A stretch of DNA of 64,000 nt from Okamejei kenojei (taxonomy: Eukaryota), in NCBI GenBank assembly GCA_035221665.1, contig CM069157.1:11842001-11906000 (forward strand), given 5' to 3'. The notes under the pieces were generated by a model, which was given only the letters and a program-made list of their open reading frames with translations, did not search any database and had not been told where the DNA came from. Position 1 is the first letter of the stretch. Every line of letters starts with the position of its first letter. Below, piece by piece: positions 3,356-57,205 of the stretch. The position numbers and the translations under genes were made by a program.

Positions 3356-4102
3356 TCATCAACCGCCAGGTGGCGCTTCGATAGCAGCCTCGCCTACAGT
3401 CTGTCCTTTTCTTGTTATTTTCGGTGTTTTAAAACTGTGTGTTAATGTTCTCCGGTTTGTTTTATGTGGGGGGTGGGCGGGGGAAACTTTTTTTCAACCT
3501 CTTACCTTGCCGGAGATGCGATTGTTTCCTGGGTCGTATCTCTGGTTGCTCTGCGGCCTAACATTGTGGAGCTGGAGGCCTTGCTTGGGACTGACTTTGA
3601 GCCCCACCGCGGGGCGGGGACTTGGCATCGGGGTAGATCCCTTGCCTGGGATCAACGCTCCAACTTTAACATCTGCGGACTTTAACATCAAGGGCTCACT
3701 GTCTCGGGAGAGACAGAGTCGGGATGCTCCAGAAGCAACACGACGTCGCTAGCCTCAACCCGAGATAGATCGCCCGGCGCAGGGGGGGGGCTGAGATTCC
3801 CCCCCCCCCCCCACCGATGCAGGAGCTTGAACGCCCCGACGATGAGGCCCGCCGCCAGCTACGGGAGTAAAATCATCCCGTCAACGGAAGGTTTAGCGGC
3901 CCCGACCACTGGAGGACCAAGAAGGGAAGAGATTGAACTTTTTTTTCACCTTCCATTACAGTGAGGAATCTGGGGAAGTCACTGTGGTGGATGTTTATGT
4001 TAAACTGTATTTTGTGTGTTCTGAAGCTTTTTATTAGTATGACTATATGGCAAATCAAATTCCTTATATGTTGCAACGCATATTTGGCAAATAAAGTATG
4101 AG
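3356..4102 (+). mobile_element. Unclassified GC/CpG-rich interspersed repeat with retroposon-like AATAAA tail
   Basis: Abrupt GC- and CpG-rich island in AT-rich DNA, poly-G/C runs, ends ...gcaaataaagtatga. Confidence 0.5.
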
Positions 4103-4184
4103 TAACCTTCTTGGTTACTTCAAAATACTCAAATTTGAGGCGCAAACTCCCATAACACAAACCATGCTGAGACGGGACTGACAT

Positions 4185-4625
4185 GTGAGGAAAGAATGGG
4201 TTGTCTGGGCTTGTATTCACTGGTATTCAAGGATGAGAGAGGATCTTATAGAAACGTATACAATTCTTAAGGGATTGCACAGGCTAGATGCAGAAAAAAT
4301 GTTCCCAATGTTGGGGGAGTCCAGAAATAGGGGTCACAGTTTAAGAATAAGGCGTAGGCCATTTAGGACAGATGAGGAAAAACTTTTTCACCCAGAGAAT
4401 TGTGAATCTGTGGAAATCTCCGCCACAGAAGGCAGTGGAGGCCAATTCACTGGATGTATTCAAGAGAGTTAATTATAGCTCTTAGGGCTAATGGAATCAA
4501 GGGATATGGGAAGAAAGCAGGAATGGGGTACTGATTTTGGATGATTAACCATGATCATATTGAATGGCAGTGCTGGCTCGAAGGGCCAAATGGCCTATTT
4601 GTGCACCTATTTTCCATGTTTCTAT
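4185..4625 (+). mobile_element. CR1-type LINE ORF2 C-terminus and 3'UTR
   Basis: ORF 4185..4472 has RMREDLIETYTILKGLHRLDAEKMFPMLGESRNRGHSLRIR, a typical CR1 ORF2 end. Confidence 0.85.
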
Positions 4626-5814
4626 CCCAGTAAGCCCATCTTTCCAAATGCATGCAATTCCTATCCCTCAGAATCCTTTCCAATAACTTTCCTACCGCAA
4701 ATGTTAGGCTCACTAGTCGATAGTTCCCAGGTTTTTCTTTGCAACTCTTTTTAGAGGCATATTAGCCACCCATCAGCCTTCCGGCACCATATCTAGTAAG
4801 ATTCATATATCTCAGTCAGTATCTACACCCCCTTAAAACGTTTAGATTTTTAAAGTGTAACACCCACAATCAATATTCCTGTCGTATCCAAACCAGTGTT
4901 TTTTACATTTTTGATTACTTCCTTGCTCCTGTATTCTATAATTTTAACGCTCAGGATCCCATGTACATTTTCTTTAAAACTACATTTTCAACATGTTCTG
5001 CCATTCAACAAATTTTGCACACAAGGGAACATGAAAAAGTAAAAATATACCCAGTGAACCCTTTTTAGAATGGTTCACTCATTTATAGTTCTAGTACCAA
5101 TCGTTATCTGTGCCCTTGCCTCCAGTCCAAAAAAAGCAATCTCTCTTGTTTTCTTGGTCCTTAGCCACTTCGTATCCATGCTGCTATAATCCCTTTTATG
5201 GAATAGCTCTAAATAATGTGACATGAGACATCAAATATTTTGAAAGTCCACTGCAGTGACACTTCTATTACCTTGGTGAAGAAAAAAAACTAGTAAGTTA
5301 GTCAAGATATAATTTGCATTTAACAAATCCATGTTCTCTAATTATACTTGGACAAGTAACTACACTTCTGTCCTGTTTTGGAACATTCACCACCATGGAG
5401 GTTAAACTAAATGACCAACATTTGCAGTGTTTATCCCTATATGGATCTATTGGAATATGGGTGCATATTTGCATCTTTTCAGTCCTCAGACACCTCTCCA
5501 AAATCTCAAAGTACTTGGAAAGTTATTTCCTCCATTGCTTTCCTCATTAATCTGAGAAGCATTCCACATGGACCAGGTGCTGTAACCATTTTCAAATGCA
5601 GCTAGCCTTTCATTTCATCTAGCTTAAACCCATCCAGAATCTCAACTAATTCTTCCTTGCAAAAAAAGCTAATGCAAATCATTTAGTACCTTAGCCAGAT
5701 CTTCTGCCTCTGCAAGATTTTCTGTTTAGTCCCTCATTCACTTTTTTAAATAAAATACTTCACCACTGAACCTCATCGAATTGGCCTGGCTCTCCCTTGT
5801 ATTAACAACTTGCA

Positions 5815-6070
5815 TCTGCACCCCATCGTCCCACATTCTGCATCCCATCATTATCACTCCTTCCCCAGCTAACAATGGGGGATTATGGGCTCCACATTTC
5901 CTTGGCCATCTGTTGCCCCCCTTGTTTTCGTTCTGGCCTTTTCCTATCTACAATTCTCCGAAGGGTTTCGACACAAAATGTCACCTATTCCTTTTCTCTG
6001 GAGATACTGCCTGACCCGTTAAGTTGCAGACTTAAGACTTTGTGTCTGTTCATCTGCAGTTCCTTCCTAC
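5815..6070 (+). mobile_element. Penelope-type terminal repeat remnant with decayed hammerhead motif
   Basis: gaagggtttcgacacaaaatgtcacctattccttttctctggagatactgcctgaccc. Confidence 0.6.
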
Positions 6071-6389
6071 GCAATGCTGCCTATCACTATAATAGAAACA
6101 CGCAGCTCAATAAAGTTCTCCCAAGCACAATCCCCGCATCCATTGCGCTAATATCACTATCCCAGTTTCTATTTCCACAGTTGAAGATCTCCATTTTTGT
6201 TATTTTAGCACTTTTGCAATTTCCCTGCTAATTTATTCAATTTTACTGGCTGGCAATCTATTGATTTTTTTTCCACTAGTGATCACATCTCTATTTTTCT
6301 CAAACTGTAAAGAATGGATCATTTTAAACAGCAGATACTGAAAACAAGAGATAAAAACTGAAAAATGAAGTTAAAAGTATACAAAAGAA

Positions 6390-6922
6390 CATAAAGTGCT
6401 GGAGTACCTCAGCAGGTCAGGCAGAGAACATGAATAGGTATTATTTCAGATTAAGATCCTTCTTCAGAGTGTGTGTGTGTGGGGGGGGGGGGGGGGGGGG
6501 AGGGGGGGCGGGAGGGAGAGGGAAGAAAACTTGGAGGCAAGACAAAGCGTGGCTTGGATACAGGCAAGGTTTTTTCTTTGATAGGCAGATGGTTGGAACA
6601 AAGAGTAAAAGCAAGTGAGAAACAGGATTGAAAGTTGTGAATTGTGAAGCTAGGAGGAAAATAGCAGGGCTGTAGGAGAAGGAAATAGGTTGGAGTCCAT
6701 GAGGGGCACAAGAATGTGGGGGGGAGTTGGTAGGGTTTTTTTAGAGGTTATCTAAAATTGCAGAATTCATTATTCATTCCATTGGGTTGTAAGCTCCCAA
6801 AGTGGTAAATAAGGTAGTGTTCCGTCAGTTTACATGTGGCCCCTCTAACAATGGAGGTGGCCCAGAATATAAAGGCCATGTTGGGAATGGGAAGGGGAGT
6901 TAAAATGATTAGCAGCCGGGAG
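6390..6922 (-). mobile_element. Penelope-like retroelement 3' end (GIY-YIG C-terminus plus terminal repeat)
   Basis: Minus frame ...CKLTEHYLIYHFGSLQPNGMNNEFCNFR*, homologous to 41500-41640, followed by the terminal repeat. Confidence 0.75.
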
Positions 6923-7032
6923 ATAGAAACATAGAAAATAGGTGCAGGAGTAGGCCATTCGGCCCTTCGAGCCAGCACCGCCATTCAATATGATCATGGC
7001 TAATCATCCAAAATCAGTACCCCGTTCCTGCT
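6923..7032 (-). mobile_element. CR1-type LINE 3' tail
   Basis: atagaaacatagaaaataggtgcaggagtaggccattcggcccttcgagcc. Confidence 0.75.
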
Positions 7033-7037
7033 TTAAT

Positions 7038-7170
7038 TCAGAAGGAACTGCAGATGCTAGTTTACACTGAAGATAGACACAAAATGCTGGAGTAACTCAG
7101 CAGGTCAGGCAGCATCTCGGGAGAAAAGGAATAGGTGAATGTTAAAGGTTGAGACCCTGCTTCAGACTGA
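7038..7170 (-). mobile_element. Penelope-type terminal repeat copy
   Basis: gaaggaactgcagatgctag...agtaactcagcaggtcaggcagcatctc...gagaccctgcttcagactga. Confidence 0.75.
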
Positions 7171-7528
7171 ACTTTATTGCTATTCTTTCTGCATGTTTAA
7201 TCTTTTTTGGTCTTCAATTGACCTCAATTTCAGTATCAGCAAAGGACAAAAGTGATATCTGCATCCAAGTGAAGGAAATATGTTGCCCTCACAAATATTA
7301 ACATATAATTGGAAATGTTAGCTGCTTTACCCAAGTCTTGGCAATATAATAAGATGGTTCTAAGGGACCGAATATTTTCAGCTAATTCTTAGATTAAATT
7401 TATTACAGGAAGTAATTCAACTTGTTGCATCCTTACTAGTCAAAACAGCTAATCCCAGTTGCCAGCTTTTGCTCTGTTACCAAATACTTTAAATCCAAAG
7501 GATGACATTTGAACCAACATATCCAGAT

Positions 7529-7705
7529 CATAGAAACATAGACATAGAAACATAGAAAATAGGTGCTGGAGGAGGCCATCCGGCCCTTTGAGCCAGCACC
7601 GCCATTCATTGTGATCATGGCTGATCGTCCCCTATCAATAACCCGTGCCTGCCTTCTCCCCATATCCCTTGACTCCACTAGCCCCTATCTAACTCTCTCT
7701 TAAAT
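7529..7705 (-). mobile_element. CR1-type LINE 3' tail with (ATAGAAAC)n microsatellite end
   Basis: catagaaacatagacatagaaacatagaaaataggtgctggaggaggcc. Confidence 0.75.
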
Positions 7706-8100
7706 CATCAGTTGCCATCACTGGATCACAGGTACAGTCATTTAATATGGTACCAGTCTCTATAGTTAGAATAGGGGCAGAAATTCAGGTTTAAACTAGG
7801 GATATTTTGATTAGTGAAATTCAATATAATATCAAATATCACCTCTCTGGTGGTACGGGAAAATAGAAAAATTAGGAAATACATACCATGAGAGTTAACA
7901 TACTTTCTCCTGCTACTTCCACAATAGCAAGCCTCCCACACTAAAACCAGCCAATATTGTCACACAATTTTAGAATACTGATGATTCGGGCTCCACACTG
8001 CACGCAGCCAGACAGTTAATTCCAGGATAAATAGCAATGTCTGCTCAAGCAGAGAAGAGAAATGAAATAGGAAGAGACATGTGTGGAGTATAGAGCCAAG

Positions 8101-8226
8101 CAAGGGTCTCGACTTGAAACGTCACCCATTCCTTCTCTCCAGCGATGCTGCCTGTTCCGCTGAGTTACACCAGGGTTTTGGGTCTATCTTCGATTTAAAG
8201 CAGCATCTACAGTTCTTTCCTACACA
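8101..8226 (+). mobile_element. Penelope-type terminal repeat copy (5'-truncated within the hammerhead motif)
   Basis: aagggtctcgacttgaaacgtcacccattccttctctcc...agttctttcctacaca. Confidence 0.75.
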
Positions 8227-9661
8227 AGCTTAGGCTGAGTTACCCATCTCCATGCTCTGCATTCAATGTAATTTTATATACACAGAGAGGTGTTGCCTTG
8301 TATAGGGACCGATGACAGCAGCTGACCACAATGGGACAGAGTCAATACTACCAGGAACAGCTGAGAACAGAGTCTATTCTAAAAGTTCCACCAAAAGCAG
8401 ACTTCATGCCTATGAAAACGGGAATATTGCAGTTAAAACGTGCTGGCTGTTCCTACAAAATGTTGATTTAAAAATCAAAAATGGTTACTCTTGATTATGT
8501 TCCTTTGCCTTTCTCCTTCTCAAGACTATACTGTTATATTCGCAGTCAACTGCAGATATCCAGTGCTTCCTTCAGTCCTAGGGTTACTTTTCCTTTATAA
8601 GAAATATAAATGCTCAATCTGATATCCAAGACAATTGCGGGTTTGTTTTAGCACATGTCCTGCCTCAATGGATCTCTCCAAGGTGTAAGGAAACAGGCCC
8701 CAATAAACCATAGATGGGAGGGGAGATCAATCAGACTGCCTCTCTCCATCATTTTATTTTAGTAACATCTAGTCACAGACATCAGGTGCAGGTAGAAGTC
8801 AACACCTACACAGGACAATACATTGTTAGCTTATGTTAGCATAGTGGCAAAGAAAAAGTAGTAATTTAATTGTATGTAGTAGCATTGTTGGTAATAGAAA
8901 ATTGAAGCACCCAACCAATTACTGCAGTTTGTATTACTGACAAAAAGCTTCAGTGCAACAAATTCTTGAACATGTATAAATGTGCTGTATACATTCTTGT
9001 AATTTAAGATGCTGCGCATTTAATGTTGGATGAAAGTTAAAAAATGTGTGTAAAGTTAAAGAGCCTTCAAGTCTTACAATTGCAGTGACTTTGTAATCAA
9101 TCCCCAGGACCTTTACTGGGGTAGTTTCTAGCTCCTCAAATCAATCTGTTAAATACCATGCTCACAAATTACCTGAGCACCTACAGTCGGGCTCATGTAC
9201 ATGATTCGTTACGATTTACTTTGGCATCTGGTCTACTTACTGATTCTCCGCTATTTATTTATTCAATCACATTCGCTGGATGTTCGGAATGGAGGAGCAT
9301 TCTCCTCAAATGATTTGCACAGTCCAAAACCAACGCAGTTATTGAAAAGCCAATGTACTTATTGAAGCTCTTTTACCAAGATATTAGCATTTCTTCAAGT
9401 GGTCAATCTATATATCACAGCTTCTTCTACTCGAGTTCTAACTTTTCAGAAGAAACTGTACGAGTGTAAAGGAGTAGGCACCTAATAACTGTTCTTTCTA
9501 TAAGCCAGTGATGCTGGCATGCAAACAAAGGTGCAGGATGGGCTCATTTGACAATGCAGTCCAGTGATCCAAATGACCGTTTCTTCAACCTTTATCCCAC
9601 GTGCACTTGTCATAGCCATCGAAGGAGGCATCCCTTCAGACCTGTGGAATTAAACGAAAAC

Positions 9662-24341: not shown

Positions 24342-26410
24342 CTGCAATAATAAAAAGATCACATATTAGTATCAAACAGGGGAGTCAATGGCTCGGGAAC
24401 AATGTAAAACTATGACAAAATTGTGCGAACTGACAAGAGGAAAAGGCTGAGAAAACAGGGGTGAAGGAGGACAGGACAGAAGGGGACAGGAGAGAAAGGT
24501 TAAGAGAGAATAAGTGGGTGATCAGTGAGTGGGGAGGCAAGGCGAGCAGAAGGAATAGACTGGAGGAGTTTGGACTCAGATAAATGTGGAGGGTTCAAAC
24601 TGTCAGGGGCTGGGGAATGTGGACCCTGAGAATTTTGTATTGGGTGGATTGTGGGGAAAGAAAACGGAAATAACAAAAAGGAGAAAAAGAGGCCAGAGGG
24701 GCGAGTGTGTGACCAGTGGTGGATGCAGAGAGCAAAGATCCAGGCAGGGTATGCAATAGAGGGAAACAATGGGCAATTTGTTGCGGCAGGACCTCTTTTG
24801 TGAGAGACTGGGCCTGTCACTTCGCCGGGAGGTGTGTATTGTGTTGTCAAAAGAGGTGGCATACGATCTGGAGTTAACAATCTAACCTATTCCTCAGATC
24901 TGGAAGACATGAACTCAGACAAATATAATCAATTCAATATGAAAAATACTCAAAAATCATATACTGGTATATTTAAATATTGTGTTCAGATACAATTCAT
25001 TTGAAGGACAATCAATGAAAGCAGTAACAACGATTATTCTCATGCATTCTTCTGTTCATACAAGATCATTGTGACATGTCATAGATGGGGCTGCTCAGAT
25101 ACAGATGTCTATGATTGGTGTACAATACTGTGCTCATAATCAAGTGCTCTCAGGTACTACAATAGTCTTGATGATTCACGCTGCTGTCATTAAATGTGAA
25201 GAGGGAAGATCAACAGAAGGTTAGCCTTATTTACACCCAGCTCTGTTTCACCTTTTCACCCTGCTCAGTCAGGGGATTCCCCTCCTGCTTAGTGACTTGT
25301 CACTGCCTTAAGAATGCAGTTGGGCTCCCCTTACTGTGCAATATGGGAATTAGGTTACACTGTAGTCAGGCGACCGAACTCTGCTTCATTCAGTTTCTAA
25401 ACACGCTTCCCATTCATCAACTCTCGGGTATCTCCAGGGAATCTGGGATGGCAACGTGCAAAGCAGTCAGCTGGAATGTCACATGAGCTGCTGGGCAGGG
25501 CTGACATTCTTGGAATTCCTTCCTTCCTCCCCCCCCCCCCCCCCCACCCCCCCATACAATCCTGTGCAGCGATAGCACGGATAATGCCCATGTAAGGACA
25601 GACTTCAGACTCAAATCATGGACTCAATCACCCAGAATGGATAACAAAATTAAGTGTACAAGGAAACATTGTTTACTATAAAACTCTCCCAGATCTAATG
25701 ACATTTATTTAAAATGGCAGGGAGAGGTGGCCAGTATTGAACAACACAGGCAGAAATGCTGAGTTTCTTGTATGCAACTGCAGCTGCACTACACCAACAT
25801 TCCGCAGCATCAGTCATTCAGATATTAACTATTTTTCTCTGTTAAAATGCTGACCAGCTGAATATTTCCAATATTTTGTTTTTTATATATAGTAACATAC
25901 TGCATACTTTTCCTTCCAAACCAAGTAGGATAATCTAATCAGGCAACATATAACAATGGGTCTTGCCAGCACTACAATGAAAGGCAGTTTTAAAACAGAA
26001 AGGACTGATAAAGTCAATGGATATGGACAATTTATAATAAGCTATCAGGAAAATTGGAGCAAAGATTAGTGTAAACATACAAGTGGCCAAAGGGGTAAAT
26101 AAATGTAACTCCAACACCTCTCCAACTCCCCTTCACTGCACTTTATTTCTGTCATCTCAATAAACTGCAAAGTCACAATGCATACTTTCTACTGCTAAAT
26201 TAACTTTAGCTACAATTGCTTTTCAGATGATTAGTTGCATGTCTGATACACTCTGAAATCTCTCAACAGTTTGGAAAACAAATGACAGAATTCTTCATAA
26301 TGTCATGATTAACCTCCTTTCACATTGACAGCATTGCATTCCTTACTAATTATGTCATTAATTCACCTTGTAAAATAACATCTTACTCCACCAAAATGGA
26401 GTTAATGAAT

Positions 26411-26603
26411 AGGAAAGAACTGCAGATGCTGGTTTAAATCGAAGGTAGACACAAAATGCTGAGTAACTCAGCGGGACAGGCAGCATCTCCAGAGAGAAGG
26501 AATGGGCGGCGTTTCAGATTGAGATATATCTCTGTACCGCATCATGCATTCCTTCTCTTCAGAGATGCTGCCTGTCCCGCTGAGTTACATTTTGTGTCTA
26601 CCT
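26411..26603. mobile_element. Fold-back Penelope-derived insertion with 14-bp TSD
   Basis: Inverted arms 26442-26504 and 26547-26604. Direct repeat tggagttaatgaat at 26397-26410 and 26604-26617. Confidence 0.85.
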
Positions 26604-26721
26604 TGGAGTTAATGAATGTCATGTTAGGTAAAGTAATTTAATACCTTTTAATTTCCCCATTCCATCTACTAGCAGCTACAGAGCAAACCTGAATTATCAA
26701 TTCCCAGAGCCTTGAATCCTA

Positions 26722-38193: not shown

Positions 38194-38505
<312 letters not shown>

Positions 38506-43448: not shown

Positions 43449-43639
43449 AAAGTGCTGGAATAACAGCATCTCTGGAGAATAGGGATAGGTGATGCTTTTA
43501 GTTGGGACCCTTCATCAGCCTGAAGAAGAGTCCCAACCCAAAATATCACCAATCCACATGTTCCAGAAAGGCTGCCTGACCCGCCGAGTTACCTGAGCAC
43601 TTTGTCTTTAAATCAGCATCTGCGGTTCCTTGTTTCTAC
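43449..43639. mobile_element. Fold-back Penelope-derived element with two back-to-back decayed hammerhead motifs
   Basis: ggtgatgcttttagttgggacccttcatcag|c|ctgaagaagagtcccaacccaaaatatcacc. Confidence 0.75.
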
Positions 43640-54119: not shown

Positions 54120-54297
54120 TAGAAACAAACAACTGGAGTGCTGGTTAATATACAAAATGACACAAAGTGCTGGAGTAACTCAGCAGGTCAGACCCGAAAC
54201 ACTACGTATCCATGTTCTCCAGAGATTCTGTCCTGCTGAGTCACTCCAGCACTTTGCATCTTTTTGAATATTAACCTGTATCTGCAGTTGTTTCTAC
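54120..54297. mobile_element. Fold-back Penelope-derived element (ribozyme core largely deleted)
   Basis: aaagtgctggagtaactcagcagg ... cctgctgagtcactccagcacttt; inverted ends tagaaacaa/ttgtttcta. Confidence 0.7.
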
Positions 54298-55589
54298 AGC
54301 TGAACTTAGTATTGCAATAATTTGAAGGCAATATTTATTGTAATTACAGGAATTAATTCATTTAATTTATGTATTCTAGTGTCAAAGGATTCAAGTGAAC
54401 TCCAATTTATTAGATCTTTGCCAGTCTCTTGCTCAGAGCGAGGGAAGCAGTTTTTGAACATTAAGGCAATGTGAAATCAGTTCTTCATAGGGATAAAAGG
54501 TTAACAGCATACACAAGAATGCATGTATAGAATTACATTCAGATTTGTTCAATTCATTTATTCATATTCATATTTGTTCGGAACAAATAAACAAACAATA
54601 ATAATAATAATATCCATCTAAAACCAGCATAGCAAATGGTCAGCAAACAGGATTTCTAAAATTGGAGAAAGGTTTATCCTAATAACATGGATTTTCTTGG
54701 ACTTTTTAAGCTTGGACTAGTAATATTATTTATTATTAGTTTAGCCAATCAGAGGTTTTATGTACTTTAAAAAGGAAGGAGGAAATTGAGGTAACATTTA
54801 AAGCTTTATAAGTTTAATGATTTACCTACCAAAATGTTATAGAGTTGCTCCATTTTCTCCCATGTGAAACCAGACAACCACTATAGTTTTTTAAATGAAT
54901 GGCAAAACAAAAAGGACGTCAAGTTTAATGTAGGCTATCCACATCAGACGTAGGAAACATTTATAGGAGCTGTGAAGGAACAATGGGACTTTCTCATTTC
55001 AAATAAAAAACCTGTATAACGTGTAGTAATAGATATAAACATATCTTCCTGCTAATCAGGAGGGCTAACGGGATGTTGTGTGGGTTGCCAAAGCAAAGGG
55101 ACGGAGTATGCACCAATTGCACGAGGCACTTGACTTTAGAAAAGATATACTAGCCTGGAAATGGATGCAGCCTGAAAAATTACACAGCTAAGGATTTAAA
55201 TTGTCAGTACACTGTATATACACAGAAAATTATTAAACATTGTGAATGTGTAAAATTTCCCAGTACTGGTGAAGAGTACGATCTTAAAACCAGTCAAGAG
55301 TGAATCAAGAAATTCTGCTATACAAGTGTGCTGAAAATCGATTTCTCACTCCAAAACTGGAACACTGTATCTAATCCTGGTCATATAATTTTAGGAAAGT
55401 GAAGATTCTGGAGAAAGGGCGAGGGATGTCAGTAATAAGGGTGCACTGCAAAATGCGACATAATTTGCTCCATAAAACAAAGAACCTTGAGAGAAGGTTA
55501 GACGTGAAAAGATCATGACCTGTTTCAGTAGTGAATAGAGGGAAACAGATCCACACAATGGATGATTCAAGAAGAGATGAAAATAAAGT

Positions 55590-56674: not shown

Positions 56675-57205
56675 ATTGAGAGTTAAAGGGAGAGCTCCCT
56701 CAAAGTGGCAACACAGTAGAGAGGATAGTAAGGCTGGTGATGGCATGCTTGCCTTCTTCACTCAGGGCACTGAATATAAAAGTCAGGAAGTCATGTTACA
56801 TCTGTATAAAGCTTTGGTCGGACCGCATTTGGAGTATTGTATGCAGTCTGGTCGCCGCATTACAGGGGGGACGTGGAGGCTTTGGTGGGGCTGCAGGCGA
56901 GAATCAGTAGGATGTGCCTGGATTAGAGTATTTGCCATAAAGATAGATTAAATAATCTTGAGTTGACAAAAATACTGGAGAAACTCAGTGGGTGAGGTGG
57001 CATCTATGGAGCAAAGGAAATAGGCGACGTTTCGGGTCGAGACCCTTCTTCAGACTTGCCTATTTCCTTCGCTCCATAGATGCTGCCTCACCCGCTGAGT
57101 TTCTCCAGCATTTCTGTCTATCTTCGATTTTCCAGCATTTGCAGTTCCTTCTTAAACAATCTTGGAATTGTTTTCTCTGGCGTGTTGGAGGCTGAGGGGA
57201 GACTA
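56675..57205 (+). mobile_element. CR1-type LINE fragment interrupted by a fold-back Penelope-derived element (56965-57157)
   Basis: ORF LYKALVGPHLEYCMQ; LINE resumes after the insertion; short direct repeat aatcttg on both sides. Confidence 0.8.
57026..57053 (-). ncRNA. Minimal hammerhead ribozyme motif, fully intact core
   Basis: Minus strand CUGAAGA-A-GGGUC(UC)GACCC-GAAAC-GUC, flanked by ~60-nt inverted arms (56965-57025, 57058-57118). Confidence 0.6.

Follow-up and report, generated by a model that had tools for sequence, protein, structure and literature searches.

The fold-back element in the fourth identified intron of ARID1A is very probably a single insertion of two head-to-head terminal-repeat stubs of a Penelope-like element (PLE), and the minimal hammerhead ribozyme that it carries is likely to be an inert passenger in that intron. 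All positions given below are those of the 64,000-nucleotide stretch that was analysed (the window).

The 28-nt core was read directly from the letters of the minus strand (57053-57026), with the GUC triplet and the palindromic ACGU (57030-57027) that the earlier note had described. Measured against the features of minimal PLE hammerheads in PMC4209133, it has the CUGANGA and GAAA boxes, an NUH triplet, an extra base after A9, a G10.1-C11.1 pair and a palindrome that replaces helix III. The putative cut site of this type I motif lies on the same strand between 57026 and 57025. The perfect 5-bp stem II of the earlier note was one pair too long: because a fifth pair would close a loop of 2 nt, stem II was counted as 4 bp (57045-57042 / 57037-57034) with a CUCG loop. 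Among subfamilies, stem II differs in an A-U or G-U pair and in a CUCG or UUCG loop and remains pairable, a pattern of variation that suggests selection acting on master elements and not on copies. When up to three mismatches are allowed, the 28-mer has four matches in the window and none in 100 shuffles, and the exact core has 48,215 matches in the 2.76-Gb genome as opposed to none for the reversed control. An Rfam search of the window, which had been put forward as a check, returned no hammerhead match reaching the gathering score; a local search relaxed to E 10 gave 15 matches, none a hammerhead. Matches to miRNA precursors were set aside as generic hairpin hits with scores far under the gathering thresholds.

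The insertion may be considered in terms of two copies, a junction and a target-site duplication. If the element is numbered so that +1 is the A three bases before C3, the tail-less copy (57056-56961, minus strand, the sense strand of ARID1A) spans +1 to +95 and begins at the preferred 5' end of the family. It is set head to head with an inverted, 5'-truncated copy on the plus strand (57058-57158, about +32 to +132), which lacks the hammerhead core and carries a PLE tail of ~36 nt (about 57122-57158). The 4-nt junction (57054-57057, minus strand) contains the native 5' strand of helix I and is excluded from the long helix in the predicted fold. The whole lies between plus-strand duplications of 13 bp, identical at 12 of 13 positions, at 56948-56960 and 57152-57164, the right copy overlapping the last ~7 nt of the tail. 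The fold-back itself (56965-57118) consists of two arms of 61 nt, 56965-57025 and 57058-57118, that are 90% complementary and separated by 32 nt. As had been anticipated, the arms pair into a stable hairpin (z -13.9), and none of 200 shuffled sequences was equally stable. The arms and pairing of the fold-back originally placed at 56965-57157 therefore stand, while the insertion extends beyond the arms, over 56961-57158 plus the target duplication. Since a search for an empty site in two relatives found none, both carrying the insertion, its boundaries rest on the target duplication. The 61-bp intronic hairpin could, in addition, serve as a dsRNA target for editing or processing.

The repeat was assigned to a family from long copies elsewhere in the genome. 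In one of these (L049), a reverse transcriptase domain (RVT_1, E 0.011) and a GIY-YIG endonuclease domain (E 4.6e-4) lie upstream of the repeat, both under the Pfam cut-offs and in broken frames. A C-x4-C-x2-C linker (L022, L028, L030) and a YIDD motif were read directly in long-copy frames. L049 and the other domain-bearing long copies belong to a sister subfamily, A, and in subfamily B, to which the window's insertion belongs, the endonuclease-end region alone was seen, by eye (L050). Since RT-like and GIY-YIG frames precede the repeat in long copies, the hammerhead-bearing repeat is identified, on sequence grounds, as the 3' terminal repeat of an endonuclease-bearing PLE, and the earlier recognition of a PLE-type minimal hammerhead is borne out. 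The linker points to a clade that is probably Neptune or Nematis. Short stubs of this PLE number tens of thousands in the genome. A literature search on hammerheads of Penelope elements in sharks found nothing relevant; the supplements of PMC4209133 may include this hammerhead motif.

The anatomy of the window's insertion recurs throughout the family. In 1,145,558 bases from 128 sources, with three overlapping loci dropped and most non-C27 loci centred on exact cores, 873 segments were mapped, and removal of 304 tandem-satellite segments left 569 for pair counts. Among these there were 98 head-to-head pairs, one of them probably counted twice through local duplication (L080/L081), as opposed to 7 tail-to-tail pairs. 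Exactly one tail was present in 75 of the 98, two in 3 and none in 20, and target duplications measured 13-18 bp in most young pairs. A contiguous stretch of DNA totalling 444 kb and taken without selection held 156 segments with 24 pairs among them, and 50 of the 156 start at -3..+4. With copies selected for an exact core and their partners dropped, 147 of 452 5' ends fell at -3..+4, and the 3' ends clustered at 88-101 (201/452) and 115-135 (156/452). A lone looped-out core is found in 15 of the 98 sampled pairs, including the window's insertion. A reading of these structures as MITEs of a DNA transposon was rejected, as junctions vary from pair to pair, the arms are unequal and duplication lengths vary. 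For the window's insertion, a reading as a non-LTR retrozyme was likewise rejected, as it has one core only, an inverted partner lacking it and no tandem direct repeats.

The -3..+4 start region, used by about a third of copies, is a pyrimidine-rich stretch ending CAG/T, which reads either as an initiator or as a splice acceptor. From this initiator-like context and the pile-up of 5' ends, +1 is probably the 5' end of the RNA. The 304 tandem-satellite segments come from arrays of a ~48-nt unit, drawn from element positions 44-92 and lacking the core, which were seen at L006:359-808 and at many C1 loci.

The fold-back layout is a routine and already published product of PLE insertion. An inverted truncated copy at the 5' side, a tail on one side and a target duplication are all on record (PMC8557442, PMC3846280, PMC2377424), and in an anole PLE both target strands are cut and extended from two start sites that bracket the tail (PMC11167929). 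By this route, the enzyme of the element would nick both target strands at one staggered cut and two short cDNAs would be primed, the first at the end of the tail (about +130) and the second at an internal site (about +96). One cDNA would reach the fixed start of the family at +1 and the other would halt near +30 to +32, after which joining of their ends would give a head-to-head pair of stubs.

The host gene is ARID1A. Its last-exon frame matches ARID1A with an E of 1e-261, and the ARID exon scores 121-122 bits to ARID1A compared with 95-99 to ARID1B. Three sets of contigs from the best-matching organism, together with one raw RNA run of a relative, join the exon at 63307-63190 straight to the exon starting at 38505; therefore, the hammerhead sits within a single intron (38506-63189, minus strand, 24.7 kb) and on the pre-mRNA strand. 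This intron is spliced normally and in one piece. Three coding exons, placed upstream by means of motifs of the gene, are consistent with the intron being the fourth. Gene, strand and single intron thus agree with the earlier assignment to intron 4, its number being consistent with the exons found; the exon joins supported by reads are 3-4 and 4-5 only. Eight segments of the PLE family lie in the sense and nine in the antisense orientation within ARID1A, which amounts to no orientation bias, and no sign was seen in this analysis that the location of the insertion in ARID1A goes beyond chance. A second exact core on the sense strand of ARID1A (L033:804-831, minus) is located in intron 1, 27.8 kb upstream of 57053-57026, and belongs to a longer, tailed single-arm copy. 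ARID1A introns also contain three older pairs of this family, joined head to head, at window positions 26410-26604, 43464-43628 and 54127-54298. The same intron also holds broken frames, at 52799-52009 on the minus strand, that resemble a Tc1-type transposase.

Whether the core can cut was considered from precedent and from predicted folds. Single minimal PLE hammerheads gave no detectable cleavage and dimers and trimers cleaved weakly (PMC4209133; reviewed in PMC6765202), and an anole PLE hammerhead required the protein of the element to cleave (PMC11167929). In the window's copy, helix III is impossible in cis because positions 15.2 and 16.2 directly adjoin, with 0 nt between them. In the predicted fold of the full insertion, the arm pairs G1.1 with the base that lies five positions before C3 (P 0.99). 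The native U2.1-G1.1 pair has a P of 3e-5 there, and a helix I abutting C3 is absent, the register being off by 4 nt. The native register is 5.8 kcal/mol worse than the best fold (-109.5 vs -115.3 kcal/mol). The fold-back had been thought to supply a long helix I; it does lengthen the helix, but out of register. The further idea that this closing helix could rescue the hammerhead is not supported, as the missing part is helix III and not a long helix I. The features expected of a hammerhead active as a monomer, a closable helix III and a helix I abutting C3, are thus absent from the modelled structure. The hairpin is predicted to keep the core open, with a stem II P of 0.97. In a tailed single-arm copy (L021, +1..+132), the predicted fold instead has the 3' end of the tail paired to the core's CUGAAGAAGG half, leaving stem II with a P of 0.001. 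Such pairing of tail and core is a possible built-in off switch in subfamilies A, B and G.

Two molecules fare no better in the energy model. A double hammerhead is predicted at -214.7 kcal/mol, compared with -230.8 kcal/mol for two monomer hairpins, and since its helix I is intermolecular, the 61-bp hairpin would need a strand swap. The best predicted homodimer (-240.9) is arm-swapped and has the stem II palindromes paired together instead. Nearest-neighbour energies omit tertiary contacts and proteins, and because the same model also scores the native minimal dimer (-6.7) as less stable than two monomers (-10.6), these energies are no more than suggestive and cannot exclude activity. In the pre-mRNA, then, the arms would form the 61-bp hairpin and the core would be looped out with helix I out of register, so that cleavage would be expected to be negligible.

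Against the reading of an inert passenger stands the proposal that the fold-back lets the copy cleave itself as a monomer, cutting ARID1A pre-mRNA and tuning the output of the gene. An intact core that is predicted to be open, its place on the sense strand and the presence of the insertion at the same site in two related organisms all fit this proposal. Nevertheless it is extremely unlikely, given the unclosable helix III and the misregistered helix I, the inactivity of monomers of this class in earlier work (PMC4209133) and the neutral decay of cores in genomic copies described below. Introns cut by hammerheads were, moreover, still spliced efficiently, yet a fast HDV ribozyme blocked splicing (PMC2995048). 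It is somewhat less improbable, and still very unlikely, that the looped-out core cleaves slowly in a dimer with the intron 1 core, another transcript or element RNA, perhaps with the aid of protein. The intron 1 core is likewise exact and on the same strand, dimers and trimers of such motifs do cleave weakly (PMC4209133), a protein assists the anole motif (PMC11167929), and the family's sequence is well represented in RNA from a related organism, with more than 24,000 reads per run. However, the partners would be joined by just 4 + 2 bp unless the hairpin opens, and the favoured homodimer is the arm-swapped one. Two RNA runs of the relative also lack a pile-up of molecule ends on the element, a weak test given fragmented libraries that mostly represent other copies. 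The particular case in which the looped-out core, freed from the tail that would bury it, forms a split double hammerhead with the intron 1 core across 28 kb is very unlikely.

The inverted arm could also have been copied from RNA already cut by the hammerhead, its start then being a fossil of cleavage in vivo. In keeping with this, 57058, where the arm begins, corresponds to G1.1, and the junction is two letters or fewer in 13 of 46 pattern matches. On the other hand, 5' ends at +31..+33 number 9 when 8.5 are expected, and CpG decay blurs the arm end, which may lie anywhere from +30 to +32. Genome-wide, 46 junctions fall within three letters of the cut site, compared with 113 and 97 at two control offsets; these controls may benefit from microhomology and suffer less from CpG decay. 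This exact geometry is uncommon and not favoured, and it gives no sign that cleavage made the arm; an origin from cut RNA is accordingly held to be a slim chance.

An inert passenger agrees with how the cores have aged. Decay was counted in the 56 of 105 core-spanning copies that remained after the 49 selected for an exact core were dropped. Catalytic positions were changed at 43 of 542 and the body at 201 of 2448 (7.9% vs 8.2%, p 0.93), CpG sites were changed at 93 of 525 in the same copies, and the core was intact in 8 of the 56 unselected long copies. Cores in genomic copies thus decay neutrally. An apparent conservation of catalytic bases seen earlier (8/353 vs 177/2526) vanished once the count was confined to copies that span the core in full and those selected for an exact core were dropped; alignment-end bias and mixed subfamilies are taken to explain it. 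Within ARID1A, 3 of the 4 sense cores, the exact one in intron 1 among them, have every catalytic base, as opposed to 0 of the 3 antisense cores (by hand calculation, a one-sided p of about 0.11). This is the only hint contrary to the inert reading, and the cores are too few, and too selected, for it to count for much, the window's copy having been picked as intact.

Outside its core, the window's insertion differs from the subfamily majority at 9 of 165 positions (3/101 and 6/64); the two differences within the core are a common core variant. By hand calculation, the chance of a 28-nt core remaining unchanged is about 0.2. Contigs of the two relatives start in unique flanking sequence and reach the arms, on the tail side in both and on the other side in one, and none spans the core. 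With the insertion at the same site in both, it predates those splits; in the long left flank, of about 1,248 bases, the two relatives show 52 and 56 differences.

The insertion itself matters little, being one of many ordinary PLE stubs that lies in a large intron by chance. The family, with its fixed start, two 3' ends and one tail per pair, is a useful natural record of integration that makes a twin-priming model testable. If looped-out cores did in fact use distant partners for cleavage, a hidden source of cuts in pre-mRNA would lie in tens of thousands of intronic copies, and if split double hammerheads form, scattered PLE stubs would be latent pre-mRNA cutters.

Among known systems, the closest in sequence are the minimal hammerheads in the pseudo-LTRs of metazoan PLEs (Cervera and de la Pena 2014, PMC4209133). 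These share the core boxes, the extra base between A9 and G10.1, the G10.1-C11.1 pair, the palindromic 15.2/16.2 and the lack of helix III, and likewise occur mostly as single motifs on truncated copies. Stem II and native helix I are shorter here (4 bp with a tetraloop and 2 bp) than in Schistosoma (7-8 and 4-5 bp), and the copy number is higher, with 48,215 exact copies compared to coelacanth and frog, which have about 4,000-9,000. The same paper also reports dual motifs on opposite strands; in contrast, the partner arm of the fold-back lacks a core. Insertions of endonuclease-bearing PLEs with inverted pLTRs (PMC8557442, PMC3846280, PMC2377424) share the inverted 5'-truncated copy placed head to head at the 5' end, the 30-40-bp tail at one end and the target duplication. 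They differ in that the two copies here are stubs of ~100 nt that enclose no coding sequence, and in that most stubs of the family start at one base.

The anole Poseidon element PAc (PMC11167929) has the same two start sites for reverse transcription bracketing the tail, with both target strands cut and extended, and a hammerhead just upstream with no RNA-seq ends at the cut site, as is the case here. The present family differs in its C-x4-C-x2-C linker, which points to Neptune or Nematis, and stub pairs are not described in the available text on PAc. The intronic hammerheads of amniotes, such as that of RECK (PMC6155905), are likewise of type I and within host-gene introns; they show conservation in birds as well as mammals and are depicted with tertiary contacts. 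The ARID1A copy, unlike these, belongs to a high-copy repeat, lacks helix III and shows no sign of selection. Non-LTR retrozymes (bioRxiv 10.64898/2026.07.22.740005) are also PLE-derived, non-coding and hammerhead-bearing; they are arranged as tandem direct repeats with a hammerhead in each unit, whereas the ARID1A insertion is one inverted pair with one core.
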